Assembly: GCA_031520405.1 (NCBI GenBank)
Contig: GCA_031520405.1_4842.1
Origin: a phage
Reading direction: 5' to 3' (one strand)
Length of the DNA: 64,000 nucleotides
The notes under the pieces were generated by a model. The model was not told where the DNA came from. It did no database searches and was given only the letters and a program-made list of their open reading frames with translations. Of this stretch, positions 1,362 to 56,372 are shown one piece after another (the stretch's first letter is position 1; every line of letters begins with the position of its first letter). The translations under genes and the position numbers were made by a program.

Positions 1362-1828
1362 TATGTCCTCTCCTTCTTCACGAGGTTATCATAGGCGTTC
1401 TTCAACATGGCATCCGACCAGCTAGTCCAATTGAACACATTAATCGGACTCACTCCTTTGTATAGTTCTAATATGGTTGGCGAAAGTTTGATTTCTATCG
1501 AGTTGTGGTCTTCACCTTCCACCACCGTTAACCAGAACAAATCTTTATCCAACAATTTGTGAGCAACGTGTACGTACTTGGATGCAGTTTCATCACACCA
1601 TTGTTCCAGGATTGAATACAATTCCCTTTCTATCCTCATGCGGGTCTCTGAAGAATTCGGGGTTCCGTAATAAGGGGAATTGGAATGATATGCCGTGGCT
1701 TCCTGTAAGCGTGACACCAATGGTATAGCAAAGCCAGCCTGGAACATATATTTCCAATGACTTTCAAGGGTGGAGATGATCTCGTCTCTTTCGACCTGCG
1801 ATAAGCGCATTATGGTTTCCTCAGCCAT
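1361..1828 (-). CDS. hypothetical protein
   Basis: 155-aa ORF, tightly packed with neighbours. Confidence 0.4.
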
Positions 1829-2151
1829 TCTAAAATCGGCACGTTCACAAACCCTTTATGCCAACGATGCGGTTTGTGACCTCTATTATGTTCGAGCAAA
1901 CACGTGTCTGGTGGGACACTGAAGTGGATGCCGTCGATGTCGTAGTAATGTCCGTCAATCAGAGTATACACATGACCTTCGATCTGGCTGTAATGGATCT
2001 CTGCTTGAGGATACACATGCTTCAGAACCAGAGCAACCTGATAGCACTTTCCGTTCTTCCCAACATACTCAACATCCACCTGTTGTGGGAAGACGTCTTT
2101 GATAAGATTTATCAATCTCGTGATGTCATTTACAACAACTGAACGTTTCAT
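1810..2151 (-). CDS. hypothetical protein
   Basis: 113-aa ORF. Confidence 0.35.
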   Translation of the reverse strand: MKRSVVVNDITRLINLIKDVFPQQVDVEYVGKNGKCYQVALVLKHVYPQAEIHYSQIEGHVYTLIDGHYYDIDGIHFSVPPDTCLLEHNRGHKPHRWHKGFVNVPILEWLRKP

Positions 2152-2153
2152 CT

Positions 2154-2816
2154 CTATGATAACTCATGGCGATGTCGAACACACGCAGGGCAATCACAAT
2201 TCTTTTTCAAAATTGGCAATTCACACCATGTCATTAAGTCATGTATTGGGGACATGTGATGATAGAACCAAGATTTCTTGAGACTAATCAATGGATATAA
2301 AATTTCAATAGGTCTTTCCCCGTCTCTGGTCATCATGTTGTACCCTTCAATGACTTTATTAAAGGCGGGTATCCAGTGTATTGCGTCATCGCCGTTAACA
2401 TATGCCAATATATACGTGGAAGGCAAGCTCCTGCCTTTAAATTGCGTGTTTAATAACCATATCGGGGCTTGTGCTAAACAAGAGCGAAAACCACCGTTCG
2501 GGACGTTGATGCTACTGATAGGTTCTTGATGATGTGTCCAACGATACATGAGAAGTGGGGCATTTTTATTAATCCAGTTGTGTATTTTATTCCTCGCCCA
2601 ATTTTCGCGCTTAGATTTAAATTTATTATTTTCGAGGTGGCAATACACAGTATGAACTGAATATCCTTTCGATAACAACCAAATCAACATGTATGTGCTA
2701 TCCACCCCACCAGACCAGAACAACGTCACTTCTTGATTATTCTCCGGTAATGGAGCATCCCCTTGAAGAACACGGTATACAAAATCACAATCAGATACTG
2801 AGACAACAATTTCCAT
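2154..2816 (-). CDS. QueC-like PP-loop ATPase (7-cyano-7-deazaguanine synthase family)
   Basis: N-terminal PP-loop FWSGGVDST; C-terminal Cys cluster CDCPACVRHR resembling QueC zinc site; about 220 aa. Confidence 0.55.
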   Translation of the reverse strand: MEIVVSVSDCDFVYRVLQGDAPLPENNQEVTLFWSGGVDSTYMLIWLLSKGYSVHTVYCHLENNKFKSKRENWARNKIHNWINKNAPLLMYRWTHHQEPISSINVPNGGFRSCLAQAPIWLLNTQFKGRSLPSTYILAYVNGDDAIHWIPAFNKVIEGYNMMTRDGERPIEILYPLISLKKSWFYHHMSPIHDLMTWCELPILKKNCDCPACVRHRHELS

Positions 2817-3127
2817 TAAAATATTCCTCTTAAAGAATCATTTATCCTGCGCAATTCGTTTTCCACTTTTATCTTCATATTTTTATCGTCGTTCACGAAA
2901 ATCATTTTATCTAAATCTTCGCCATTAATCTTTGTATAAAAATAAATGTCATGCTCAAAGAAAATCGTTTTTCCAACAGAACGCATGGCAAAGAACGTTG
3001 CGATAGTTCTTGATAAAGGTTTGAATTTAATGGCATTGAAACGCAAAGCCTGATAGAGAGGTTTTAATGTTCCTAAGCGAATACAATGCTGGATAATTTC
3101 TTGCTCTTTCATTTTGTTGTGCGCCAT
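2816..3127 (-). CDS. hypothetical protein
   Basis: track ORF 2816..3283 trimmed to internal ATG (MAHNK...) that lies downstream of a terminator and a TATAAT box. Confidence 0.35.
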   Translation of the reverse strand: MAHNKMKEQEIIQHCIRLGTLKPLYQALRFNAIKFKPLSRTIATFFAMRSVGKTIFFEHDIYFYTKINGEDLDKMIFVNDDKNMKIKVENELRRINDSLRGIF

Positions 3128-6670: not shown

Positions 6671-6679
6671 CCTCCGGAT

Positions 6680-8011
6680 TTATAGGCCCAATGCCTTTTC
6701 AAGATCATCTAAATCTTCAGTATAAAGATCGATGTCTTGCTTATTATTTAATTCTTCTCGTTGAACTTCTAAATTCTTTATCTGGTTCAACAAACGTTCA
6801 CGGGCATCTAGTGTAATTGATGATAAAGACATCTTGAATAAATCATCGAGATCGCCATCAAAATCAGGATAGTCTGTCTGGAATAACGCTTTCAGTTCCG
6901 TGAGGCTCCGGCGCATATCTGTAACGACAGCCCACCCAATGAATATGGCACGATTGTTCAAACGGTGTATTTTGTCGGTCAATTCCTTGATAAGATACTG
7001 ACGTCTATCTTCATAGCGACTCAGGCGATAATTGAAAAATGGAAGCAACATATCTTTCCAACCATCGTAACGGTGAATAACACCATCTTCATCCCAAGCT
7101 GTCCACACGGGCTTATTAGCTGAGTAGAGACGGAACATCTGTTCAACCTGTTCGTCATTCAACTTAGACAATTCACCCCGCTTGAATACAACAGTGATAT
7201 CCCAACCATCTTCGGTCGTATCGTTGGCGTACTCAGTGAGGACACCCGCCTTGTACAGAGGCAACAGCACTTTGGTCTCATAGGTTTTAGAGAACCAACC
7301 AATAGGAACCTCGGTGATGTTCAAAGTGGTTGCATTAACGCGGGTGAACAATCCACGACTGTATGCTCTTCCTTCCTCAGTATAGCCTGTCTCTCCTTTG
7401 AAACCATTCCAGTACGGTTTTAAGTCCTTCGGGTCTTCGCCACGGAGAAGTGCTCTCAGGGCACTGAGCACGGACTTAACGCAGTGGCATGGGGTGTCGG
7501 TGGCATAACCCGAGCCGATACCATTGATACCATTCACGAGAAACATGGGCAGGATGGGTAAAAAGAATTTCGGCTCCAGTTTCTCTTCCCCAAGATAATT
7601 GTATTCCAATATCCCATCGTCCTCCTTTCGGAAGATCTTACGGATAACTTCAGACACTGCCACTGAAATATAACGAGCGGAAGACGCTTCGCGCCCCATG
7701 ATTGAACCAAACTGTCCGTCGCGGTCAAAGTATGGGATGTTATTCGTACCTGGGAACCCCTGAGCCATGTTCACGATCGTACCGCTCATGTTCTCACCAC
7801 CGGATTTGTAATTCGTGCGAGCGGCGGCGAACATGCCAAGGCGGTCAACAATCTCCTCCTTGTTGTATTCAAGAGCAGCAAAGAGTATCTTACGCTGGCT
7901 TGGCTTCAGGCTGTCAATCAGCTGAGGGATTTGACGGATGCTGTTAACCACGGAAAACTCTTTATGATCCCCGTTGATAAATTCTGTTACGGTAATACTT
8001 TTAGCAACCAT
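6680..8011 (-). CDS. DNA topoisomerase II medium subunit (T4 gp52-like, GyrA-like)
   Basis: GyrA-like cleavage domain; start re-set to ATG 1 nt after upstream stop with AGGA SD (track ORF 6680..8092). Confidence 0.75.
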   Translation of the reverse strand: MVAKSITVTEFINGDHKEFSVVNSIRQIPQLIDSLKPSQRKILFAALEYNKEEIVDRLGMFAAARTNYKSGGENMSGTIVNMAQGFPGTNNIPYFDRDGQFGSIMGREASSARYISVAVSEVIRKIFRKEDDGILEYNYLGEEKLEPKFFLPILPMFLVNGINGIGSGYATDTPCHCVKSVLSALRALLRGEDPKDLKPYWNGFKGETGYTEEGRAYSRGLFTRVNATTLNITEVPIGWFSKTYETKVLLPLYKAGVLTEYANDTTEDGWDITVVFKRGELSKLNDEQVEQMFRLYSANKPVWTAWDEDGVIHRYDGWKDMLLPFFNYRLSRYEDRRQYLIKELTDKIHRLNNRAIFIGWAVVTDMRRSLTELKALFQTDYPDFDGDLDDLFKMSLSSITLDARERLLNQIKNLEVQREELNNKQDIDLYTEDLDDLEKALGL

Positions 8012-42364: not shown

Positions 42365-42371
42365 CTAAATA
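42365..42371 (+). promoter_or_regulatory. late-promoter-like CTAAATA box upstream of gp6
   Basis: ggCTAAATAtc about 40 nt upstream of ATG 42412. Confidence 0.4.
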
Positions 42372-45033: not shown

Positions 45034-46224
45034 ATGGCCGATTTCCTGAGTCAATATACAGGTCAGCAGATAGATCAGATATTGGGTTCTGTTGACGACA
45101 AAGTAAGTAAAAATGACGTTATTAACGATTTTGAAGTTAACGACCCATTGTTTCCACCATCTGCTCGCCTGACATATGAGTTGAAAAGATCTGTTGACAC
45201 AATCAATGATACTCTGGCCAACAAAGTTATTCGTACAGATAGTGGTGAACAAACAATCAATGGCAAAAAGACTTTCAATGCGTTGTTGGTGACCAATGGG
45301 GGCATACAAGTTCCCGCCGGAAAATCCGTTTCAATCACAGATGAACCAACGAACTCGACAGATGGTGTTAACCTGAGCATGTTGAGAAAGCATGGCGTCA
45401 GTGAAGACACTACCCCGCCTGGTTCTGGTTTGGCTGGGGAGTTGTTGACATCCGGATATTACAAATTCAATTTGGACTTCACCAGGTTGTCTGCGTATAC
45501 CGGACCAACGTTGCCGACTTCAGTTCCAGTACAAACAGATTCTGGAGCGCGTTATTGGACAATGACTGCATTTTTTGATGCGTTGTTTGCAGACAACCGA
45601 TTTAATGGATATGTGACAACGACAGCGTATGACGCAGATATGCTGAGTCTAGAATCCCAGATTAATAACATCAACACGTCGTTGAACGGGAAAGTCAACA
45701 CCTCGACTTACAACACTAAGATGGCGTCATTGGATTTGAGTATCTCCAATATCAATACGTCTCTGGGTAATAAAGTCGAGGTCAGCACGTACAACACGAA
45801 GATGGCATCTCTGGATAACAGCATCAGTTCTCTTTCCAGTGATAAAGTTAGTGTATCAACGTATAATGCCAAGATGACCTCTATCGACAATAGTTTGGGG
45901 AACGCCGTTTATCGTACCAAAACGAATTTGTCGTCATACACGGTTTCGGCTTCTGGAACGACGGCTCTTCCAGATTTTGATTTGGTGAACCTTTGTCAAA
46001 TACTGGTAACTGCGCAATGGGGGATAGGTAACGTTGTTGACACATATCGAGTAACCATAACTCGTGACGGAACGATCAAATCAGAGTTGTTAGTTCAGAA
46101 AAGTACGAGTGGTACAGTGACGTTCACAGGGTCTGTGGTGGGCGGTAAATTGAGAATTTCCGTTGTTAATGCGAATACAACAACTGCTTGTTCTGTTGAT
46201 TATTCTATTGCAGCTTCTTTCTAA
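45034..46224 (+). CDS. tail fibre protein with internal tandem repeats
   Basis: TINGKKTFN fibre motif; three to four roughly 26-aa repeats (NINTSLNGKVNTSTYNTKMASLD...). Confidence 0.5.
   Translation: MADFLSQYTGQQIDQILGSVDDKVSKNDVINDFEVNDPLFPPSARLTYELKRSVDTINDTLANKVIRTDSGEQTINGKKTFNALLVTNGGIQVPAGKSVSITDEPTNSTDGVNLSMLRKHGVSEDTTPPGSGLAGELLTSGYYKFNLDFTRLSAYTGPTLPTSVPVQTDSGARYWTMTAFFDALFADNRFNGYVTTTAYDADMLSLESQINNINTSLNGKVNTSTYNTKMASLDLSISNINTSLGNKVEVSTYNTKMASLDNSISSLSSDKVSVSTYNAKMTSIDNSLGNAVYRTKTNLSSYTVSASGTTALPDFDLVNLCQILVTAQWGIGNVVDTYRVTITRDGTIKSELLVQKSTSGTVTFTGSVVGGKLRISVVNANTTTACSVDYSIAASF
45655..45900 (+). repeat. intragenic tandem repeats (about 80-nt period)
   Basis: repeated units ...aatatcaatacgtc.../...acgtacaacacgaagatggc... 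encoding NINTSL-GxKV-STYNTKMASLD. Confidence 0.5.
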
Positions 46225-46226
46225 AA

Positions 46227-46264
46227 CTAAATACCCCTAGATGACATGAATACATTTAGGGGTA
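46227..46264 (+). promoter_or_regulatory. late-promoter-like box CTAAATA plus SD-sequestering 5'UTR hairpin
   Basis: CTAAATA then hairpin tacccct...aggggta with AGGGG SD in the 3' arm, ATG at 46271. Confidence 0.45.
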
Positions 46265-46270
46265 TTACAA

Positions 46271-49200
46271 ATGGCCAACAAACCAACACAGCCTCTTTTC
46301 CCTTTGGGTTTAGAAACTTCTGAGTCTTCGAACATAAAAGGCTTCAACAACTCCGGCACTATTGAGCATTCCCCTGGTGCCGTAATGACATTTCCTGAAG
46401 ATACTGAAGTTACAGGTCTTCCATCTTCTGTGCGTTACAATCCTGATAGTGATGAATTTGAAGGTTATTACGAAAACGGTGGTTGGCTGTCTTTGGGGGG
46501 CGGTGGAATACGCTGGGAAACGCTCCCTCACGCTCCCTCTAGCAATTTGTTAGAAGGTCGTGGCTATCTCATTAATAATACCACAGGGACATCTACAGTG
46601 GTTCTCCCTTCCCCTACGCGTATTGGGGATTCCGTTACTATTTGTGATGCTTATGGGAAATTTGCCACTTACCCATTGACCGTGTCTCCTTCTGGAAATA
46701 ATTTGTATGGTTCCACTGAAGACATGGCTATAACAACTGATAATGTTTCAGCAACGTTCACTTGGTCTGGACCTGAACAAGGTTGGGTTATCACATCCGG
46801 AGTCGGTCTTGGTCAAGGCCGTGTCTACAGTCGTGAAATCTTTACACAAATTTTGGCGTCTGAAACAAGTGCTGTCACTCTCAATACTCCACCAATAATC
46901 GTGGACGTGTATGCTGACGGAAAACGTCTTGCGGAATCCAAATATTCACTAGATGGGAATGTAATCACTTTCAGTCCTTCTTTGTCAGCCAACACAGAAC
47001 TTCAGGTGATTGAATATACTCCTATTCAATTGGGTAATGGCGGTGGTTCTGGTTCTTCTACGATTACTTGGGTCTATAATGGGGGTTCAGCGATTGGCGG
47101 TGAAACCGAAATCACGTTAGACATCGTTGTTGATGATGTTCCGGCCATTGATATAAACGGAAGTCGCCAGTATAAAAATCTGGGGTTCACATTCGATCCA
47201 TTAACCAGTAAAATCACTCTTGCGCAAGAACTGGATGCAGAGGATGAAGTTGTTGTAATTATCAATGGAACGCCAAACATCTATAATCAAATTGATTATA
47301 CTTTGCGGGAAGTGGCTCGTGTAACCAATGTTAAAGATACAGAGGTCATTTATTTTAGTGTTGGTGCTGTGTTAAGCGGGTATAAAGTTATCTATGATAA
47401 AGTAACACAGAGATCATATTTTATTCCAGAGCTACCGACTGGAACCACGGCAGTCAGCCTTAGTTCTTCGGCTGTACTTGTGCATTCTGCTGGTAGTGTT
47501 GATCTGGGCGCATTAGCTGTATCTCGTGAAGAATACGTAACATTGTCTGGGACATTTGATTCTGGTGCTGTCATCAATACTAAAAATGAATTACTCACTC
47601 ACACGGATGGAAAGTATCGTTGGGATGGTACACTTCCTAAAACCGTTGCTCCTGGCTCAACTCCTATTACAACAGGCGGCGTTGGTGTTGGCGCATGGAT
47701 TAGTGTTGGTGATGCTTCATTGAGAAGTGACTTATTAAAAGATGATGGATACACACTTATTCCATCAGTGCAAATTCAGCAATGGAGAGCTGAGGGTGAC
47801 ATTAGAGGGTGGGGGGCTGTAGACGGTGGATTCAATGATTCAGCCATTTTAGCGGCTCTAAACTCTGATTCACCGAGTATAAAGCTCGGCGGAAGAGGAT
47901 TTGTTTCCAAGGTTTCCGATACCATTAACCACAAAAGCAATAAAGTGATACATAGTGGTTCCCTGAATTTTCAGTTTGTTGGAGGAACTCAGCAAGAGAA
48001 ATCCGGGATACTTATGGCTAACATCGCTAATGCCAAAGTGATTGATGTTGATATAACCGGAACCCTGGACGGCGGCATTCGTGGGTACGGTGGAAGCAAT
48101 ATCGTTATTGACGGAGTGAGTGTTCACGACATCGGGGTTTCAGCATTGACTGGCGAGTGCGGCATGGGGATCTGGTTCGGAGACTACGCACACTATGAGA
48201 ATCAAACTGATGGACTATTAATACAAAATTGCCGCATTAACAATATTGGCGGTGTAGGCATCATGCGCGGTGACGGCATTGGTGTTTATAATGCTAAAAA
48301 CTTTACTATCAGAAACAATAACATCACCACTGTAAACAGAATGGGGATATCAGCAGGTAGTGATTGTTTATATTTCAAAATACACGGGAACTATATTGGC
48401 GATATCTTATTGGCAGGTATAGATATAGAACCAGATGCACATTATACCGCTTCAAATTTCAAGATATACAATAACACTATTATTGGTTTTGCCTCTAGAT
48501 TCGTGACTGCGACTGGCGGTGTTGGTCAGCTTTTTGGTATTGATGTACACGCCAACACTTCATACGGTAAAGTTTACAAGAACATACTGTCGGCAGGTCA
48601 GTATGGAACAGAAGCATTCCATATAGGAAATAATGCAGATGAGATTGAGATTACAGATAACGATCTGATAGGCGGTGCTGTTGTAATCCCATTATTCATT
48701 AAGACATATGATGGTAGTGGTAGTAAGCACATCAAAATAAACCGCAACAGGGCAAAGAGAACATGTAAATCATTTGCAGATGTTGCCATGTCTGAAGATG
48801 TTTATATTTCTGAAAATGTATTCTCTGGAAATAGTTCTGCTGATAGCTTTTTCTTAAGGCTATCGACAATATCTGGGCTTAATGTTGACTATAACCGGTC
48901 CAGTGATACAACAAACTTCATTAAGGCATTTGACGCTGGAAACACATCAAGTATGAAGGTCACTAATAATAATGCATACACTCTTTCAGATGGTATAGAC
49001 ATACTAACTTCTGGTCCACTGGCTGAATTTATTGCTTCTGGAAACACTATTTTATGCCCAGCATCCAACAAAGGAATTTCACTGGAAGTAACAGGTTCAG
49101 GTTCTATTTCTAATATTAGGCTCCGTGGCAACATAATTTATAATGCCACAACTAAAATATATGTATCACCTGCTGCCACTGGATGGGATATGTTAACCAA

Positions 49201-49306
49201 AAATAGCAGGTATGATCTGTCTGGAGTCGCAAATGGCACTCAGCTATTCGAACTATCAAGGAATAGAGTTACTCAATTTTTAAACGGAACATGGTATGAT
49301 GGTTAA
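46271..49306 (+). CDS. tailspike protein with beta-helix (putative depolymerase), 1011 aa
   Basis: shared tailspike module (VKDTEVIYF...YRWDGTLPKTVAPGSTP...GGVGVGAWISVGD) plus Gly/Asn-rich parallel beta-helix repeats. Confidence 0.7.
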   Translation: MANKPTQPLFPLGLETSESSNIKGFNNSGTIEHSPGAVMTFPEDTEVTGLPSSVRYNPDSDEFEGYYENGGWLSLGGGGIRWETLPHAPSSNLLEGRGYLINNTTGTSTVVLPSPTRIGDSVTICDAYGKFATYPLTVSPSGNNLYGSTEDMAITTDNVSATFTWSGPEQGWVITSGVGLGQGRVYSREIFTQILASETSAVTLNTPPIIVDVYADGKRLAESKYSLDGNVITFSPSLSANTELQVIEYTPIQLGNGGGSGSSTITWVYNGGSAIGGETEITLDIVVDDVPAIDINGSRQYKNLGFTFDPLTSKITLAQELDAEDEVVVIINGTPNIYNQIDYTLREVARVTNVKDTEVIYFSVGAVLSGYKVIYDKVTQRSYFIPELPTGTTAVSLSSSAVLVHSAGSVDLGALAVSREEYVTLSGTFDSGAVINTKNELLTHTDGKYRWDGTLPKTVAPGSTPITTGGVGVGAWISVGDASLRSDLLKDDGYTLIPSVQIQQWRAEGDIRGWGAVDGGFNDSAILAALNSDSPSIKLGGRGFVSKVSDTINHKSNKVIHSGSLNFQFVGGTQQEKSGILMANIANAKVIDVDITGTLDGGIRGYGGSNIVIDGVSVHDIGVSALTGECGMGIWFGDYAHYENQTDGLLIQNCRINNIGGVGIMRGDGIGVYNAKNFTIRNNNITTVNRMGISAGSDCLYFKIHGNYIGDILLAGIDIEPDAHYTASNFKIYNNTIIGFASRFVTATGGVGQLFGIDVHANTSYGKVYKNILSAGQYGTEAFHIGNNADEIEITDNDLIGGAVVIPLFIKTYDGSGSKHIKINRNRAKRTCKSFADVAMSEDVYISENVFSGNSSADSFFLRLSTISGLNVDYNRSSDTTNFIKAFDAGNTSSMKVTNNNAYTLSDGIDILTSGPLAEFIASGNTILCPASNKGISLEVTGSGSISNIRLRGNIIYNATTKIYVSPAATGWDMLTKNSRYDLSGVANGTQLFELSRNRVTQFLNGTWYDG

Positions 49307-49314
49307 GTTATTTA

Positions 49315-49342
49315 AAAACCCCGCTTCGGCGGGGTTCTTATT
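49315..49342 (+). terminator. rho-independent terminator
   Basis: hairpin aacccc-gcttcggc-ggggtt then cttatt. Confidence 0.5.
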
Positions 49343-49414
49343 ATACCTTTGTTCATAAATTTTATTAGTTCAGACTAAATACTCCATATTGGTCATCCTT
49401 TATGGAGTATTATC
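49318..49414 (+). repeat. intergenic repeat element copy 1 (terminator + late-promoter box + UTR hairpin)
   Basis: 59 nt identical to 51383..51441 region; contains gaCTAAATAc and hairpin tactccata/tatggagta. Confidence 0.7.
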
Positions 49415-51328
49415 ATGATTTCTCAATTCAATCAACCACGCGGCTCCACTTCCATAGAAGTTAACAAACAATCTATCGCTCGAAATTTCGGTGTCAAAGA
49501 AGACGAAGTCATTTATTTCACTGTCGGTATTGATCTCAGCGGATTTAAAGTAATTTATGATGAGTCTACCCAACGGGCTTATTCTCTTCCTTCGGGTATT
49601 GTTTCAGGAACGATTGCGATAAGTCTGAACGAACAAGCCATCCTTACTCATTCTTCTGGCTCTGTTGACCTTGGGGAATTAGCAGTAAGCCGCGAAGAAT
49701 ATGTGACTTTACCTGGTTCTTTTAATTTCGGTCATACCATTAATGTGAAAAATGAACTTCTTGTTCACGATGATAAAAAATATCGATGGGATGGTTCTTT
49801 GCCAAAGGTAGTTGCCGCTGGTTCTACACCCGATAACTCAGGCGGTGTTGGTTTAGGTGCATGGTTGAGTGTTGGTGATGTATCATTGAGAGCGGATTTG
49901 GCTAGTGGCACACTTGGTAAAGGTGCGAATCTTTTGACATATAAGTCACAAGTATCAAACTCGGTTGCTATAAGCCAACAAATTAAAAATAGTGAAAGGG
50001 TTTCTGTTTTTGAGTATTTGGCTAAGCCTATTCCTGGTTTTGATAATGCATCAGCATTCGCTGCTATGAAAGCTGATGCTGAAGCAGGTGTTGTAATAAC
50101 AGTACCTTCAGGAGTATATGAAACATCTGAACCACTGAGATTCACAAAACCTGTTCAAATATGGTTTGATGTAGGAGTGCGAATAAAACTTACATCTGGT
50201 GCACATGACCATGTTGTGGAAATAGATTTACGTGGACAAGATGAGGGGTATTGGGGGTATAAACCTTTCTTTGGTGGTGGCAGGGTTATTCTTGATGGTC
50301 TTGGTCATGCTAAGTACGGGCTATCACTTCGTGGCGTAATATCTGGTGGTTTTCCTGGTATTCAAGCAACCAATATAACAACTGCTGGGTTATATCTGGC
50401 TTGGACTCAATGCTGTACATACACTGATTTTATTTGCTCTAATAACGTGGAGGTTTTCACAACAAAACCCCTGCACGGTATTTTAGTAGATAAAGATAAC
50501 AATCCGTCAAATCCACGTGGTACATCATGCGATATCTTTATTAACCCATGTGTAGAGCACACTGCGGGTGATGGGTTTGTAGGACTAAGCCTGATGAACT
50601 CAATGGTTATAAACGGAACAATCGAGGGAAACCTTGGCGCAGGCATTTCATTGGGGCATCCTACAGATAATACTTACACTGCACTGGGTAATACATTTCT
50701 TGGTATTGACCTTGAGGTGAACACGCTAACTGATATTGTGATTAACAAGTTTTCACACATGAACGAGTTCATAGGACTCAAATCAGGTTATTCATCTCCA
50801 TCAGTTCAGGTCAGAGGTTTTCGTAACTATTTCTCTGGAGGTACTGTTAGCGATTTCGACTTCAGGCCAGATAGCCATGACAACCACGTACAGGATGTAA
50901 CACTTTTAGCTGAGTTTCCTGTTGTTAATGATGAAGGGATAAGAAACACTTATGAAAGATTATGGAATCTTAACAATGCTCAAGTTAACGTAAGCACAAA
51001 CCCTGTTAACACAAGAAGCAATCAGCCTATAGCGGGAGGTGAGACAGTAACGTTAGACCCATATAAAGCATCCTATGTTGTATGCACCGCAACAGGAACA
51101 CCTATTAATATAGTTTCTGCCACCAAAAAATTAGATGGAGCAAGAATAGATTTGACAATTCACAATGCATCAGGAACAGATTCATTAGTCATTAACTGGG
51201 CATCAGATATTAGAGTTGGCAATTTTACTCCTCCACCAGCAGGTAAACATAAGGGGTTATCACTAAGATATGATGCTAATTACGGTTATTGGACTGTAGT
51301 TGGTGTTGGACTGGACGCTTTATCGTGA
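49415..51328 (+). CDS. tailspike protein, 637 aa
   Basis: N-terminal shared module (VKEDEVIYF...YRWDGSLPKVVAAGSTP...GGVGLGAWLSVGD) followed by beta-helix-like region. Confidence 0.7.
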   Translation: MISQFNQPRGSTSIEVNKQSIARNFGVKEDEVIYFTVGIDLSGFKVIYDESTQRAYSLPSGIVSGTIAISLNEQAILTHSSGSVDLGELAVSREEYVTLPGSFNFGHTINVKNELLVHDDKKYRWDGSLPKVVAAGSTPDNSGGVGLGAWLSVGDVSLRADLASGTLGKGANLLTYKSQVSNSVAISQQIKNSERVSVFEYLAKPIPGFDNASAFAAMKADAEAGVVITVPSGVYETSEPLRFTKPVQIWFDVGVRIKLTSGAHDHVVEIDLRGQDEGYWGYKPFFGGGRVILDGLGHAKYGLSLRGVISGGFPGIQATNITTAGLYLAWTQCCTYTDFICSNNVEVFTTKPLHGILVDKDNNPSNPRGTSCDIFINPCVEHTAGDGFVGLSLMNSMVINGTIEGNLGAGISLGHPTDNTYTALGNTFLGIDLEVNTLTDIVINKFSHMNEFIGLKSGYSSPSVQVRGFRNYFSGGTVSDFDFRPDSHDNHVQDVTLLAEFPVVNDEGIRNTYERLWNLNNAQVNVSTNPVNTRSNQPIAGGETVTLDPYKASYVVCTATGTPINIVSATKKLDGARIDLTIHNASGTDSLVINWASDIRVGNFTPPPAGKHKGLSLRYDANYGYWTVVGVGLDALS

Positions 51329-51372
51329 CATCACCAACATTATAAAATGATGTTGTTGCTGTTAAAATTTAA

Positions 51373-51402
51373 ATAACCCCTCTTCGGCGGGGTTCTTATT
51401 AT
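51373..51402 (+). terminator. rho-independent terminator
   Basis: hairpin aacccc-tcttcggc-ggggtt then cttatt. Confidence 0.5.
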
Positions 51403-51475
51403 ACCTTTGTTCATAAATTTTATTAGTTCAGACTAAATACCCCATATTGGCAAATCCTTTATGGGGTATTTTCAA
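51376..51475 (+). repeat. intergenic repeat element copy 2
   Basis: near-identical to 49318..49414; hairpin arms carry compensatory change (taccccata/tatggggta). Confidence 0.7.
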
Positions 51476-54241
51476 ATGACCAGAAATGTAGAAGAATTAT
51501 TCGGCGGCGTAATCACAGCTCCTCACCAGATTCCTTTCACGTATAAATCAAATGTCGGTGGAGAAACTTTCCTTTCTTTGCCGTTCCATCCCGTCACTGG
51601 TGTTATCACAATCAACGGTGGTATGCAAGTTCCGTTAGACAACTTTGAAATCGAAGGAAATACGTTGAATCTCGGGCGCGCATTGTCCAAAGGCGATGTT
51701 GTGTATTGCTTATTCGATAAAATTCTTTCGCCAGAAGATACAGCCAAAGGTATCCGCATATACAAATTTCAGGCCGTGGGAGGTGAAACCGAGTTCACTC
51801 CTGATTTCACATCCTATGGTGTCCAATCTCTTTATATCGGTGGCGAGTACAAAACACCCGAAATTGAATATTCCTATAACAGCACGACAGGGAAAGTGTC
51901 TTTGCAAACTGCACTGACTGCAGGCGTTTGGGTAGTCGCTGAAATGTCTGTTAAACAACCGAATATCAGTCCGGCGTTTGACCGAAGTATTCAAGAAATC
52001 GCCCGTTCTGCTAATGTAAAAGACTCTGAAGTCATCGTTAGTACGGACACCATATCTTTGTTGGATGGGAAGAAAGTTGTTTATGATATAGCGACGCAAA
52101 CCAGTTATGGTTTACCAACCATTCCTGATGGTTCTGTCATTTCTTCTGTATCTGCTGGGAAATTGAATTACAACCCAGGTGATGTGCAGGTTGATTTGTT
52201 GCCTTTAGAAGATTCATTTATTAATGTGATAAACACTCTGGGGCGCAATGATGGTGCCAAGTATATTGGAGAATGCCATTCTGTTGCTGATCTCAGGAAT
52301 ACTGAACCCACTATGGATGGACAACGCATTATTCTTAAGCAACACACTGCGGGTACTCTTCTTGGTGGAGGGGTATTCCGTGCGTTAATTGATGGTACAG
52401 GAAAGACTGATAATAACGGTACTGTGATCAAAACTGTTGGCGGCGCGGCATGGTTACGTGTTAATGCTGATAGAGTTAACCCATTCATGTTTGGTGCTTT
52501 GGGTGGTTCTAATGATGATACTATTCCAGTACAATCTTGTGTGGATAGTGGTAAGGCCACACAATTAACTGATGCACATTACGTTAGCAATATCCAGTTA
52601 AAATATAATACGTCGTCTATTTATGGGTCTGGATTACATTACTCAAGGTTGCATCAGTTGCCTTCTGCTACTGGGAATTGTATTACCATAAAAGATACAT
52701 GCTCCCTTATTGTATTAGACGCCTTTGGGGTATATGGCACAGGTGCACAACAAGGCATGCCATTTACTGCGGGCACAACAGGTATCTATGTAGAAACTCC
52801 TTCAGGTCTCTCAGCCGATTATCCGTTCCACACTACCGCAGACCCAAGACGCGACTTGTGTATTTCTAAGGTCCATATAGCAGGTTTTGATGAATATGGG
52901 TTAAATATTGATAGTGGTAACTTTAGTGTTACTACAGATTCTCTTTTAGTCAACCACATCAATCAGGTGGGTGTCCGTTGTGCTACTACTGATTGGACTT
53001 GGACAAATATCCAGGTTAATACCTGCGGTAAACAATGTCTGGTTCTTGATGGTTGTGGTAATGGTCGTATTATTGGCGGTAAATTCATTTGGGCTAACTG
53101 GCAACCTTATGGTACAGTAGGACAGTTCCCAGGCATTACTATTAATAACAGCCAGAATATGGTTATTAATGGTATTGAGGTACAAGATTGTGGCGGGAAT
53201 GGCATTGAGATTAGCGATTCATATTCAATTTCCATGAACGGATTGAACACCAATCGTAACGGCATCAATGCTAACAACACTTTCTACAACATCGTATTTA
53301 ACAAAAGCGATGCAGTTATCAACGGATTCGTAGGACTCAATTATGCCGCGAATAGTGGTTCAGGTGCTAACTCTAGTGCAGGCAATTTTCAGTTCCTGTC
53401 TAATGATTGTAGTGTCACCATTAATGGTGTGGTTGAGACTGGTTATATGGGCATTAACTTTATTGGTGATAACAATATTATCAACCCCACCAATTCCGAC
53501 CTGAGCATTAACGGATTGGTTAATTATTCCAAGACTGGTTTGCAAACCATGAACGAGACCCCTACATTTGATGGTGTTAGCACTACACCTGTTTATGTAA
53601 GTGTCCCATCTTCTGTAGGGCAAGTAAATGGTCTGAGACTATCACAAGCCAACAAAGATAAATTACTGTATTCAAGAACAGCAGGTCCAGAAGGTATTAC
53701 CATGGCTGCTGTTGTAGTACCCACCATATCTGGAGCTGAAGTATTTAACTTCATGGCCATTGGTTCAGGGTTTAGTGATACATCCAACAGTCTTCATCTT
53801 CAATTAGTTATAGACGCTTCTGGAAAACAAACAATTGCTTTGCTATTGGGGGGCGATGGTACAACCCAAATTTTATCTGGGGATTTACCTAACGACCTTA
53901 AACTACAAAGTGGTGTACCATATCATATAGCTATTGGTGCTAAACCTGGATATTTCTGGTGGAGTATTCTTAATATTCAGACGGGTAAGAGAATCAGACG
54001 GTCATTCCGAGGCGCTTATTTAGCCGTACCATTTAATTCTATATTCGGATTAACTTCTTCATTAACATTCTTCTCGGATAGCAATGCTGGTGGGGATGCT
54101 TGTTCTGGGGTTGGTGCTAAAGTGTATGTTGGTATGTTCTCTTCTGAGAACGATTATGTAGCTTCACGATACTACAACCTGATTAATCCTGTAGACCCTA
54201 CTAAGTTAATTAGTTACCGTATATTGGATTCTTCTATTTAA
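51476..54241 (+). CDS. tailspike protein, 921 aa
   Basis: start set at ATG following UTR hairpin (track 51461); internal shared module (ARSANVKDSEVIV...) and long beta-helix-like repeats. Confidence 0.65.
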   Translation: MTRNVEELFGGVITAPHQIPFTYKSNVGGETFLSLPFHPVTGVITINGGMQVPLDNFEIEGNTLNLGRALSKGDVVYCLFDKILSPEDTAKGIRIYKFQAVGGETEFTPDFTSYGVQSLYIGGEYKTPEIEYSYNSTTGKVSLQTALTAGVWVVAEMSVKQPNISPAFDRSIQEIARSANVKDSEVIVSTDTISLLDGKKVVYDIATQTSYGLPTIPDGSVISSVSAGKLNYNPGDVQVDLLPLEDSFINVINTLGRNDGAKYIGECHSVADLRNTEPTMDGQRIILKQHTAGTLLGGGVFRALIDGTGKTDNNGTVIKTVGGAAWLRVNADRVNPFMFGALGGSNDDTIPVQSCVDSGKATQLTDAHYVSNIQLKYNTSSIYGSGLHYSRLHQLPSATGNCITIKDTCSLIVLDAFGVYGTGAQQGMPFTAGTTGIYVETPSGLSADYPFHTTADPRRDLCISKVHIAGFDEYGLNIDSGNFSVTTDSLLVNHINQVGVRCATTDWTWTNIQVNTCGKQCLVLDGCGNGRIIGGKFIWANWQPYGTVGQFPGITINNSQNMVINGIEVQDCGGNGIEISDSYSISMNGLNTNRNGINANNTFYNIVFNKSDAVINGFVGLNYAANSGSGANSSAGNFQFLSNDCSVTINGVVETGYMGINFIGDNNIINPTNSDLSINGLVNYSKTGLQTMNETPTFDGVSTTPVYVSVPSSVGQVNGLRLSQANKDKLLYSRTAGPEGITMAAVVVPTISGAEVFNFMAIGSGFSDTSNSLHLQLVIDASGKQTIALLLGGDGTTQILSGDLPNDLKLQSGVPYHIAIGAKPGYFWWSILNIQTGKRIRRSFRGAYLAVPFNSIFGLTSSLTFFSDSNAGGDACSGVGAKVYVGMFSSENDYVASRYYNLINPVDPTKLISYRILDSSI

Positions 54242-54245
54242 AAAT

Positions 54246-54272
54246 ATACCCCTCTTCGGAGGGGTCTTTACT
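54246..54272 (+). terminator. rho-independent terminator
   Basis: hairpin acccctc-ttcg-gaggggt followed by cttt. Confidence 0.5.
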
Positions 54273-54292
54273 AGAAAAACAATGAGGTACTT

Positions 54293-56338
54293 ATGAACGA
54301 AATGTTTAGTCAAGGTGGTAAAGGTTCGACTGGAATCTTAACCAATAAACAAGCAGTAGCCAGACACTTTGGTGTTAAACAATCTGAGGTTGTTTATGCC
54401 AAATCAGGACAGTCCTTGTCTGGTTATAAAGTGATCTACGATAAGGTATCTCAACGTGCCTACGCTCTCCCTTCTAACATTGGTACTGTAACGGTCACTA
54501 GTTTAGTCGACGGCATTCTCACGCACTCTGGAGGCACCGTAGATTTGGGTGCATTGGCTGTGTTAAGGGAAGAGTATGTTACTCTTGTTGAAAATTTTAC
54601 TTCTGGATTTACGATTCGTGTCAAGAACGAAGTCGTGAGCGATGGGGTGAGTCTATATCGTTGGGATGGTGCTTTACCTAAAACCGTTGCACCTGGCTCA
54701 ACACCTGAAACAACTGGTGGCGTTGGTTTAGGTGCATGGTTGAGTGTTGGTGATGCCACATTAAGAAGTGAATTAACATTGAATGTTTCAGATATTAATG
54801 GATTGATTAACGTTAATACAAGAAACAAAAATTTCATGTATGTTACATCATCGTTTCGAGGGGGTGGAGGTGCTGGTGTATATGTATGGAATCCCACAAA
54901 AAATAAATCATTACATAACGGAGCGACTATCATAGACCCATCAAGGACTCTACCGATAAACTGGGATTCTCAGTCGCAAATAGATGATTGGTTTACAATT
55001 TCATCCACAGATGGGGTGGGATGTTTTGAATTAATTGAGGGGGAGAGCTCGGTTAATCCATTGCAGTGGGGCTGCTTGGGCGATTCATCAAAAGACAACC
55101 CACATAGTGGGTATGATAACTCTTTAATATCTGATTATGTTGATGACTACGCTGAATCAGTAAATAAAACAGTATTTTGGCCTCACGGTATATTTAGATT
55201 CACTGGTCCACAGCAAAGAAAGACAAGGCATGATGGACATGAATACATTAGAATGAATAGTGAGTTTTCTACTGTTTTTATTATTGACAATCAGACGCCA
55301 ATAACTTTTCTAAAAGGAAAAGGGATTGGGACCGACCATCAGAAACTGTATGCCCACGGTTCAAGAGGAATAGAATATATTGGCAACCCTAAACGAATCC
55401 ATACTCTTCTTGATGCATACATGTACACGACATCATGGAAGCATTTTGCTGTTCGTGGATTTAAATATGGATTTGATATAAATTTTGTCTCTTTCCATAT
55501 TCAGAATTTCTATTTTACTGATAATGAAATTGGAATTTACCCAAAACCACTAATGCCGCCATTGCAAGCTGCCGCACCAAGTACAATGCTATCATTATCT
55601 TACGGTGCATTTGATTTCAGTAAGAATGGAATAGTATTCACTGAGAGATTTGGGCTTGGCGAGGCAGAAAACGTCATAAACGTAAATCTATCTTCTGTTG
55701 TGTTCGAACAAAATGAATTTGACGGATTCAGTTGTGCTAACTATCCATTACCTGTCGGTGTGAAAAACGCCAACAACAGGGTTATGAACCTTACAGTAAA
55801 TAATTGCTGGGCTGAACTTAACGGTAGAGCTGGTTTCAACTTCGAGAACGCTGACGTAACTGCGAATTCATTGAGAATAAATGAAGCGGATGAATTGATT
55901 TATCCAGCAGGGGCAAGGACATACTCTATTGATGTAAATGGTGTAAGGGAAACAAACGTACTAAAATCGTCACTTTATGGAGCGCATAATATAGAAGCTC
56001 CGGTATCTGGTCAAATGATAATAAAACCAGATGGTAGCATTTATTCTGGTGCGACAATGCCTTTTACTGTTACAAAGACATCGGAAGGTCAATTTAAATT
56101 AACGAATGCATCATCTACTCAGGGGTTTCAATACGTATCAATAGAGGTTATGCCATTCGATAGAGCAAGGATTGATACTGTTGTGACATGTGACCCATCA
56201 GATGTCGCAGCGTTCGTTCAGTTTGGTACAATATCAAGCTATAAGATTGAATTTACATCGAGAGGCACATCTACATTTGTAACTCCAGAGGCTGGTTTCG
56301 CAGTTAAATTCTCATGGGTTCACCCTCTTAATAATTAA
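54293..56338 (+). CDS. tailspike protein, 681 aa
   Basis: N-terminal shared module (VKQSEVVYA...YRWDGALPKTVAPGSTP...GGVGLGAWLSVGD). Confidence 0.65.
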   Translation: MNEMFSQGGKGSTGILTNKQAVARHFGVKQSEVVYAKSGQSLSGYKVIYDKVSQRAYALPSNIGTVTVTSLVDGILTHSGGTVDLGALAVLREEYVTLVENFTSGFTIRVKNEVVSDGVSLYRWDGALPKTVAPGSTPETTGGVGLGAWLSVGDATLRSELTLNVSDINGLINVNTRNKNFMYVTSSFRGGGGAGVYVWNPTKNKSLHNGATIIDPSRTLPINWDSQSQIDDWFTISSTDGVGCFELIEGESSVNPLQWGCLGDSSKDNPHSGYDNSLISDYVDDYAESVNKTVFWPHGIFRFTGPQQRKTRHDGHEYIRMNSEFSTVFIIDNQTPITFLKGKGIGTDHQKLYAHGSRGIEYIGNPKRIHTLLDAYMYTTSWKHFAVRGFKYGFDINFVSFHIQNFYFTDNEIGIYPKPLMPPLQAAAPSTMLSLSYGAFDFSKNGIVFTERFGLGEAENVINVNLSSVVFEQNEFDGFSCANYPLPVGVKNANNRVMNLTVNNCWAELNGRAGFNFENADVTANSLRINEADELIYPAGARTYSIDVNGVRETNVLKSSLYGAHNIEAPVSGQMIIKPDGSIYSGATMPFTVTKTSEGQFKLTNASSTQGFQYVSIEVMPFDRARIDTVVTCDPSDVAAFVQFGTISSYKIEFTSRGTSTFVTPEAGFAVKFSWVHPLNN

Positions 56339-56342
56339 TATA

Positions 56343-56372
56343 AAAACCCCGCTAATGCGGGGTTTTATTTCT
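56343..56372 (+). terminator. rho-independent terminator
   Basis: hairpin aaccccgc-taat-gcggggtt followed by ttatttc. Confidence 0.6.

Follow-up and report, generated by a model that had tools for sequence, protein, structure and literature searches.

Four tailspike genes lie side by side in the DNA analysed here, a 64,000-nucleotide stretch of a phage genome (the window), and the locus raises the question of which part of these proteins is held in common and which part is exchanged between phages. The ORF list showed four consecutive ORFs on the + strand (1011, 637, 926/921 and 681 aa), as described in the first-pass annotation. The window was identified as a Kuttervirus genome (Ackermannviridae) with a backbone 97-98% identical to many Kutterviruses, and the nearest record was Escherichia phage vB_EcoM_JN03 (OR885871), which was isolated on E. 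coli O157:H7. Flanks of the cluster were 98-99.7% identical to JN03 and TSP3, TSP2 and TSP1 were 99.6-100% identical; none of the papers in the literature library searched mentions JN03. The cluster tsp4-tsp3-tsp2-tsp1 parallels orf213-orf210 of phage CBA120 (TSP1-4, orf210-213; PDB 4OJ5, 5W6P/6W4Q, 5W6F/6NW9, 5W6H, 7REJ) with gene order and neighbours kept, and the upstream neighbours were Baseplate_wedge and gp6-like genes by Pfam. All four features of Kuttervirus membership that could be tested by sequence were found, namely gene order with baseplate neighbours, the TSP4 and TSP2 N-termini and the D1-D2 heads. A scan of the window with Rfam produced three tRNAs and nothing else. The cluster is almost certainly a set of Kuttervirus receptor-binding genes that diversify by exchange of C-terminal cassettes.

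The first gene, tsp4 (46271..49306, +; 1011 aa), was assigned from its ORF, its identity to JN03 and STP55 and its PHROG tail spike families, and encodes an AD-XD1-XD2-XD3 anchor, a D1-D2 head and a beta-helix. Residues 1-338 (46271..47284, +), covering the baseplate anchor and the gp10-like XD1-XD3 docking domains (domain names from PMC8825819), matched the CBA120 TSP4-N structures 7REJ/7RFO with an E value of 8e-220 (phmmer). The D1-D2 head (aa ~344-488; 47300..47734, +) was placed with Pfam, alignments and the motifs GTTAVSL (47441-47461), YRWDG (47615-47629) and GGVGVGAWISVGD (47675-47713), all on the + strand. It is followed by the receptor-binding cassette (47735..49303, +), with a Pfam Beta_helix match (E 8e-13). 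TSP4 was 89.7% identical to CBA120 TSP4 over aa 1-552 and 95.5% identical to JN03 TSP4 over aa 1-488, whereas the C-terminal cassette was absent from JN03, where TSP4 has 1097 aa. With TSP4 of Salmonella phage STP55 (UPU15645) the identity was 94% over the full length and 90% over the C-terminal 520 aa; the TSP3 and TSP1 cassettes of STP55 differ from those here. The TSP4 C-terminal region also showed 85% aa identity to ECGD1 gp151 and 86.5% to the O111 phage ECO111 5-P. Nucleotides 1471-3036 of STP55 tsp4 confer O111 tropism, with plaques on E. coli O111 (PMC12737597). The TSP4 cassette is therefore probably specific for the E. coli O111 O-antigen, as judged from sequence identity, although 90% identity to an O111 domain, with 10% of the amino acids of the binding part differing, is no guarantee of this.

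Two starts were possible for tsp2, 51461 (926 aa) and 51476 (921 aa), and the start of CBA120 TSP2 agrees with 51476. The gene (51476..54241, +) encodes XD2-XD3, a D1-like domain and an O157-type beta-helix, as determined from its full-length match to 6W4Q (2069 bits) and its identity to JN03 (100%) and CBA120 TSP2 (99.1% across all 921 aa). The XD2-XD3 N-terminus was present, and residues 100-242 resembled TSP4 274-415. CBA120 TSP2 is specific for E. coli O157 (PMC12737597 Table 1), and the 99% identity to this characterised protein points to E. coli O157 as the predicted target of TSP2.

The remaining two proteins resembled CBA120 in the head only. TSP3 (49415..51328, +; 637 aa; 99.8% identical to JN03 TSP3) was 93.8% identical to CBA120 TSP3, with the identity confined to aa 1-162, which form the D1-D2 head (49415..49900, +; YRWDG at 49781-49795, GGVGLGAWLSVGD at 49841-49879). 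TSP1 (54293..56338, +; 681 aa; 99.6% identical to JN03 TSP1) was 70% identical to CBA120 TSP1 over aa 1-161 only, again the D1-D2 head (54293..54775, +; YRWDG at 54656-54670, GGVGLGAWLSVGD at 54716-54754). Although the head/neck/beta-helix architecture is common to both phages, the receptor-binding parts of CBA120 TSP4, TSP3 and TSP1 (O78, O77 and Salmonella O21) were unrelated in sequence to their counterparts here.

A right-handed beta-helix was found in the C-terminal region of all four proteins by Pfam, structure matches and models, and the four regions were mutually unrelated in sequence. The divergent, beta-helix-like C-termini proposed earlier were thus confirmed, and a non-beta-helix fold appeared in none of them. 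The TSP3 cassette (49901..51325, +) gave a confident AlphaFold2 model (pLDDT 89.7) whose best Foldseek matches were CBA120 TSP3 and the HK620 and Sf6 tailspikes, and its relatives carry PF12708 behind three adaptor types (PF18668, PF09008 and PF03906). The TSP1 cassette (54776..56335, +) consists of a small, widespread neck-proximal domain and a rare beta-helix body; its model was moderately confident (pLDDT 71, from a 10-sequence alignment, as a monomer). This family was very rare, with 3 clusters among 5.8 billion, and JN03 was the only carrier among 50,697 phage records. The PHROGs did not cover the body, and a search for relatives in prophages as a clue to the host found none in the 185,579 species-representative genomes scanned. 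Like the TSP3 family, the TSP1 family also sits behind the P22 head-binding domain PF09008. Solved beta-helix tailspike structures shared 10-15% sequence identity with these two bodies and differed in the N-terminal adaptor.

A head module of ~150 aa, D1-D2, was common to TSP4, TSP3 and TSP1 at ~60% identity. TSP4 348-488 was 61.7% identical to TSP1 22-161 (E 2e-46), TSP3 9-162 was 60.4% identical to TSP1 10-161 (E 2e-53) and the TSP4 and TSP3 modules aligned with an E value of 1e-57. Pfam Tail_spike_N (PF18668) was found in all three above its gathering threshold of 25 bits, at TSP4 416-481 (79.9 bits), TSP3 90-155 (100.4 bits) and TSP1 91-154 (77.5 bits), and among the four proteins YRWDG and GGVGxGAWxSVGD were confined to these three. 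TSP2 had no PF18668 match in Pfam and neither motif, and aligned to the D1 half only at 32-39% identity (TSP2 173-252 with TSP1 20-99 at 32%); hhalign placed TSP2 167-263 (51974-52264, +), the D1-like domain, on module columns 7-117 with a probability of 97% and an E value of 4.8e-11. Similarity among the modules was therefore clear, but a full module in all four proteins was rejected: the shared module of the first-pass annotation holds for TSP4, TSP3 and TSP1, and for TSP2 in its D1 half alone. Its position was as described there, N-terminal in TSP3 and TSP1 and internal in TSP4 and, for the D1 half, in TSP2. The designation "swappable N-terminal module" had to be reversed: the conserved module at the N-terminus stays in place as an adaptor, and exchange affects the receptor-binding part at the C-terminus. 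The D2 domain with YRWDG..GGVG..SVGD is the Pfam 'TSP1/Gp66' N-terminal domain, PF18668, which links the cluster to the phage G7C gp66/gp63.1 system. Outside this cluster, the domain was found at 46-56% identity in ~66 IMG/VR contigs, mostly 40-50 kb long. A gp10-like character of the XD domains (PMC8825819) is the point in common with T4 gp10-type adaptors; G7C and T4 gp10-type phages have one or two spikes, in contrast to the four-spike branched set here.

The near-identical DNA stretch noted earlier in tsp3 and tsp1 was recovered as a 40-mer that matches exactly at 49841-49880 and differs by 2 mismatches at 54716-54755; 0 chance matches were expected. Module DNA was 70-83% identical between paralogs overall. 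Recent copying from one of tsp3 and tsp1 to the other was rejected, as the DNA around the 40-mer was only ~79% identical; the 40-mer is a conserved island, a local peak of identity with some excess of synonymous identity. Between TSP3 and TSP1, synonymous codon identity was 11/13 in the motif and 26/81 elsewhere in the module (p 5e-4). For two of the three pairs the excess was small (p 0.02-0.03), and codon bias accounts for part of it, the stretch being rich in Gly, Val and Trp.

Comparison with 13 relatives showed where the conserved head ends. Homology stopped within ~0-50 nt of the GGVGxGAWxSVGD-coding stretch and always restarted in the terminator/promoter spacers (49312-49375 and 51371-51377). 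With JN03 it stopped at 47714 (aa 488; blastn, megablast ending at 47628), one base past the motif, and restarted at 49314, so that JN03, otherwise 99.5% identical, carries an unrelated tsp4 cassette. Homology with CBA120 stopped at 47734, 49899 and 54767, and with STP55 at 49880 and 54756. In tsp3 it stopped at 49878-49891 in 11/11 relatives and in tsp4 at 47665-47748 in nine differing relatives apart from JN03; the 13 phages compared are kin, and these recurrent breakpoints do not count as independent events. An exception was tsp2, in which the D2 motif was not used and breakpoints fell at 52087-52215, and tsp1 had a second breakpoint class at 54396/54397. The cassettes also occurred in unrelated phages: that of TSP4 with its terminator hairpin in Justusliebigvirus ECGD1 (82% DNA identity, 47621-49336), and that of TSP1 both in a siphophage-like contig, with 80% DNA identity starting at 54646, and joined to a P22 head-binding domain, with 86% DNA identity starting at 55109. 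Three results support the module-level recombination suggested in the first-pass annotation: the sharp recurrent breakpoints, the JN03 tsp4 swap, and the finding of the cassettes in unrelated phages, where their DNA is 80-86% identical. Functional chimeras have been joined at aa 157 (TSP3), 149 (TSP1) and 479 (TSP4) (PMC9965104), and spontaneous tsp4/tsp5 recombination has been described (PMC11414711).

The spacers in which homology restarted are themselves repeated. A terminator-like GC hairpin follows tsp4 (49317..49336, +; repeat family D2, terminator scan), with further copies at 51375-51394, 54248-54265 and 56343-56366 (four in all). An 82-nt spacer repeat (49311..49392, +; repeat family D3) was 95% identical to 51369-51450, so that two copies flank tsp3, and is a candidate downstream homology arm. 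A link between these repeats and the tsp3 deletion of PMC11414711 was unsupported, as that paper gives no endpoints. A late-promoter-type motif, CTAAATAcCcc, of a kind reported for Ackermannviridae (PMC7283392), was found with a hairpin before tsp4 (46226..46270, +), tsp3 (49374-49414) and tsp2 (51432-51475). In all three the motif pairs with the Shine-Dalgarno site and the predicted hairpin masks the ribosome-binding site; the motif as the 5' arm of this hairpin suggests that late transcripts may be told apart from read-through ones, as in T4 gene e. A scan for sigma-70 promoters gave 21 sites against 34 expected.

From near-identity to CBA120, TSP4 would use its N-terminal AD as the baseplate anchor and present gp10-like XD2 and XD3 docking sites, TSP2 would dock on TSP4 through XD2, and TSP1 and TSP3 would each attach by a short N-terminus together with the D1-D2 head. 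The predicted outcome is four trimeric tailspikes in one branched complex, as shown in CBA120; the CBA120-like multi-tailspike reading was upheld by synteny with orf213-orf210, the TSP4-N match to 7REJ and the TSP2 identity. Each C-terminal beta-helix would, by homology, bind and probably cleave one surface polysaccharide, which would give the phage four independent host keys. The receptor-binding part would be replaced through homologous recombination between two conserved arms: a ~100-nt block coding the D2 end (YRWDG ... GGVGxGAWxSVGD), and the terminator/late-promoter spacer 3' of the gene. The window differs from JN03 by just such a swap, in tsp4.

The cluster could also be read as the product of ancient tandem duplication followed by divergence at the locus, with the C-termini differing by fast host-selected divergence and no cassette exchange. 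The head modules are clearly paralogous and the spacers are paralogous repeats too, as duplication would leave, but the C-termini are mutually dissimilar yet 80-90% identical to genes of unrelated phages, JN03 matches at 99.5% on both sides of an unrelated tsp4 cassette, and identity falls as a step, not a gradient. This reading is extremely improbable, and tandem duplication with divergence as the sole process is effectively refuted. Another doubt concerns whether all four spikes work, as TSP1 and/or TSP3 may be non-functional passengers retained for complex assembly alone. The extreme rarity of the TSP1 cassette family fits this, but both ORFs are intact, full length and 99.6-99.8% conserved in JN03, both cassettes have beta-helix models, and the TSP1 cassette is retained in two further types of phage (82-83% aa identity), which speaks for selection; passengers are accordingly improbable.

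Given real exchange, the coincidence of breakpoints and motif can reflect selection for viable chimeras at a domain boundary rather than preferential crossover at the motif. The motif end is the start of the structural neck (PMC8825819, PMC9965104), engineered junctions a few residues off are also functional (PMC9965104, PMC12737597), and structure-guided chimeras are viable with donors of minimal sequence similarity (PMC12737597). Purifying selection at the head/neck boundary, with the stretch not a preferred crossover substrate, would however leave aside the higher synonymous identity in the motif, the second arm provided by the conserved spacers, and the opposite ends of the ~100-nt block at which homology changes. 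Cross-family homology starts at the block start (47621, 54646) and within-genus homology stops at the block end, a pattern that crossovers inside the block would produce. Selection acting alone on the breakpoints is rather unlikely. A further possibility, somewhat less likely than not, is that the D2-end block and the spacer bound the cassettes as two homology arms. Both arms appear to recur outside Ackermannviridae, in Justusliebigvirus ECGD1 and in siphophage-like contigs, and would then form a cross-family tailspike 'landing pad', through which the orphan TSP1 beta-helix family, with its uncharacterised glycan, would have been gained. Similar odds apply to a T4 gene-e-like role of the hairpin that masks the ribosome-binding site.

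Published work, already put to use in engineering, covers the architecture, the conservation of the head, the exchange of the beta-helices and recombination as its driver, and the whole picture is given in PMC8432352, PMC8825819, PMC9965104, PMC11414711 and PMC12737597. What is new here is the combination of receptor-binding heads in one phage, which carries little weight for basic biology and has modest practical value. The nucleotide-level breakpoint map (D2 end, spacer repeats) offers concrete homology arms for engineering, and the TSP1 and TSP3 domains represent uncharacterised specificities that could widen the tailspike toolbox. Finally, this natural isolate is predicted to recognise O157 as well as O111, each a major STEC serogroup.

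Four adjacent tailspike ORFs were identified on the plus strand: tsp4 (46271-49306, 1011 aa), tsp3 (49415-51328, 637 aa), tsp2 (51461 or 51476 to 54241, 926 or 921 aa by the start chosen) and tsp1 (54293-56338, 681 aa). Baseplate-wedge genes (Pfam Baseplate_wedge and gp6-like) were located 5' of the cluster and a 1612-aa DUF4815 protein 3' of it. A megablast search of 50,697 phage records with the tailspike region produced 257 matching records, most from Salmonella and Escherichia phages, and those inspected were Kutterviruses. The top match was Escherichia phage vB_EcoM_JN03 (99.5% identity across 83% of the region). The genes matched CBA120 orf213, orf212, orf211 and orf210 in identical order, and the remaining window DNA showed 97-98% identity with many Kutterviruses. 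Judged by these matches, the four ORFs are tsp4, tsp3, tsp2 and tsp1 of a Kuttervirus, in line with the CBA120/ViI-like multi-tailspike module described in the first-pass annotation. The exact TSP1 and TSP3 protein matches came from a 158,163-bp contig labelled Escherichia coli in NCBI (locus tags RLO43_), apparently a phage genome deposited within a bacterial assembly. Directly 5' of tsp4, a 396-aa protein (45034-46224, plus strand; CBA120 orf215, PHROG 3838) showed internal repeats of ~19 aa (xSTYNTKMASLDxSISxxxxxLGNKV) and a weak match to BppL_N (lower baseplate protein). Three tRNA genes (Ser-GCT, Asn-GTT and Met-CAT) were found at 37698-39018 on the minus strand, with no other Rfam matches within the window.

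The head module (D1-D2, with D2 being Pfam Tail_spike_N, PF18668) showed ~60% pairwise identity between TSP4 348-488, TSP3 9-162 and TSP1 10-161 (E 1e-46 to 1e-58), with 74 invariant positions in the three-way alignment. All three proteins passed Tail_spike_N with 77-100 bits (cut-off 25 bits) and carried YRWDG and GGVGxGAWxSVGD. TSP2 had no PF18668 match in Pfam and neither motif; it aligned with D1, the first half of the module, only (BLASTP, 32-36% identity; hhalign probability 97% for TSP2 167-263), and TSP2 100-242 was similar to TSP4 274-415 (docking domain XD3 plus D1). The module had been assigned to all four proteins; the full module was confirmed in TSP4, TSP3 and TSP1 but ruled out for TSP2, which carries the D1 half. 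The near-identical DNA stretch reported for tsp3 and tsp1 was recovered: the 40-mer given there matches perfectly at 49841 and with two mismatches at 54716 (chance expectation none), while module DNA outside it showed just 70-83% identity between paralogs. In addition, the D2 half (query aa ~86-164) was found at 46-56% identity in ~66 IMG/VR contigs, most of 40-50 kb; these sizes are not Ackermannviridae-like, which makes Tail_spike_N a widespread adaptor or junction domain.

Protein identity ceased at residue 488 for TSP4 against JN03, 162 for TSP3 against CBA120, and 161 for TSP1 against CBA120 and STP55 (a Salmonella phage). JN03 DNA homology ended at 47714 when extended with blastn (47628 by megablast), 1 base past the GGVGVGAWISVGD codons of tsp4 (47675-47713), and restarted at 49314, just past the tsp4 stop. 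CBA120 homology ended at 47734, 49899 and 54767 and STP55 homology at 49880 and 54756, compared with motif ends at 49879 (tsp3) and 54754 (tsp1). Among 13 related loci, the tsp3 homology end fell within 49878-49891 in 11 of 11, and the tsp4 end within 47665-47748 in the nine loci differing there, JN03 apart; these events are not independent because the compared phages are related. Identical residues of TSP3 and TSP1 had identical codons at 11 of 13 positions in the motif versus 26 of 81 elsewhere in the module (p 5e-4), and the other two TSP pairs showed the same excess (p 0.02-0.03). The tsp2 boundary differed, with recurrent breakpoints at 52087-52215 (TSP2 aa ~204-247), the end of the D1-like domain. 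A second tsp1 breakpoint class was located at 54396/54397 (TSP1 aa ~35). The tsp2-to-tsp1 homology block ended ~100 nt into tsp1 in 6 of the 13 relatives, so the first ~35 aa are conserved and the head beyond them belongs to another allele (CBA120 and window TSP1 share 70% aa identity).

On the right, homology to the 13 related loci restarted at 49312-49375, 51371-51377 and 56328-56365, and the spacers between the genes are themselves repeats. A GC-rich terminator-like hairpin of the AACCCCGCTTCGGCGGGGTT type was found directly 3' of each gene (49317-49336, 51375-51394, 54248-54265 and 56343-56366). An 82-nt direct repeat (49311-49392 and 51369-51450, 95% identical) flanks tsp3 exactly and could mediate its precise loss or replacement; spontaneous tsp3 deletion was reported without endpoints (PMC11414711).

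Cassettes were also found across phage families. ECGD1 (Justusliebigvirus) showed 82% DNA identity with tsp4 at 47621-49336, terminator hairpin included, and this hairpin also travels with the cassette in ECO111 5-P. A siphophage-like contig showed 80% DNA identity from 54646 to the end of tsp1; homology in both begins where the ~100-nt D2-end block begins. In a P22-type protein, which carries a head-binding domain, homology with TSP1 is confined to the beta-helix body (from 55109), and relatives of TSP3-C (the C-terminal part) lie behind Tail_spike_N, P22 head-binding or T7 tail-fibre adaptors. The step-off at the D2 end, the restart in the spacers and these cassettes support the proposed module-level recombination, and they fit a left crossover within the D2-end block and a right crossover in the spacer after the gene. 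An identical breakpoint pattern would also arise if selection kept only viable junctions, located at the head/neck boundary. Downstream of ECGD1 gp151, a fragment of 74 nt shares 80% identity with the GTTAVSL region of tsp4 D1 (window 47456-47529). It carries the annotation 'tail spike protein' ('gp152', 49 aa, 6672-6742 of the ECGD1 locus) and resembles a remnant left by a previous tailspike exchange.

TSP4 residues 1-338 matched the CBA120 TSP4-N structures 7REJ/7RFO (E 8e-220), a part comprising the baseplate anchor and gp10-like XD1-XD3 domains (PMC8825819). TSP2 matched full-length CBA120 TSP2 (6W4Q, 2069 bits; 99.1% identity), while TSP3 and TSP1 matched their CBA120 counterparts up to residues ~162-180 (heads) only. 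TSP4-C matched Pfam Beta_helix (E 8e-13), and the predicted TSP3-C model (pLDDT 89.7) had its best PDB matches with the tailspikes of CBA120 (TSP3), HK620 and Sf6. All four C-terminal regions are right-handed beta-helices, in agreement with the first-pass annotation.

CBA120 TSP2 targets E. coli O157, and the STP55 TSP4 C-terminal region (nt 1471-3036) grafted on CBA120 TSP4 produced plaques on E. coli O111 (PMC12737597). Given its identity with CBA120 TSP2, TSP2 is predicted with high confidence to be O157-specific. TSP4-C was 90% identical to STP55 TSP4-C, 86.5% to one gene of ECO111 5-P (isolated on O111) and 85% to ECGD1 gp151, which points with moderate confidence to O111. TSP3-C was identical in JN03 and ≤52% identical with any other phage record. 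Among phage records TSP1-C was found in JN03 only, with 3 clusters among 5.8 billion and ~7 remote relatives at around 30% identity in a set of 1.84 billion representatives; 185,579 representative bacterial genomes yielded none.

The late-promoter-type Ackermannviridae motif CTAAATAcCcc (PMC7283392) formed the 5' arm of a strong hairpin every time (dG -17.5 to -20.4 kcal/mol, z about -5; 0 of 200 shuffles folded equally well), before tsp4 (46226-46270), tsp3 (49374-49414), tsp2 (51432-51475) and one minus-strand gene (34478-34511). Weaker plus-strand elements were found at 42365 and 62909, and none at tsp1. With their own promoter-type motifs and terminator-like hairpins, tsp4, tsp3 and tsp2 seem to be transcribed as cassettes of their own. 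In each motif hairpin the Shine-Dalgarno site, just 5' of the ATG, falls in the 3' arm. The hairpin is kept in 14 Kutterviruses, with a compensatory change in the window tsp3 copy (ACTCC/GGAGT; ACCCC/GGGGT in other Kutterviruses). In T4 gene e (lysozyme), the ribosome-binding site is masked in early read-through transcripts and late transcripts begin inside the stem. The window element resembles this arrangement and may likewise mask the site in read-through transcripts.

Overall, the interpretation of the first-pass annotation is supported and the cluster is a classic case of an already known system. The CBA120 four-spike branched complex, with XD docking domains and a head/neck/body layout, was described in PMC8825819. 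Subtypes, receptor-binding module swapping among TSP1, TSP3 and TSP4, the unlike D1 region of TSP2 and GTTAVSL in D1 (here TSP4 aa 391-397) as a proposed conserved recombination site were reported in PMC8432352. Functional chimeras joined at aa 157 (TSP3), 149 (TSP1), 479 (TSP4) and 249 (TSP2) (PMC9965104) have essentially the same junctions as the natural breakpoints here, and spontaneous tsp4/tsp5 recombination was observed (PMC11414711). Within the three papers searched for such terms, neither the repeats in the spacers nor the terminators are mentioned as forming a downstream arm; this and the D2-end block as nucleotide-level boundary are at most small increments. Beyond these, nothing is new except the orphan TSP1 domain and the particular set of alleles, in which a JN03-like cluster carries a tsp4 cassette of STP55-like type with probable O111 specificity.
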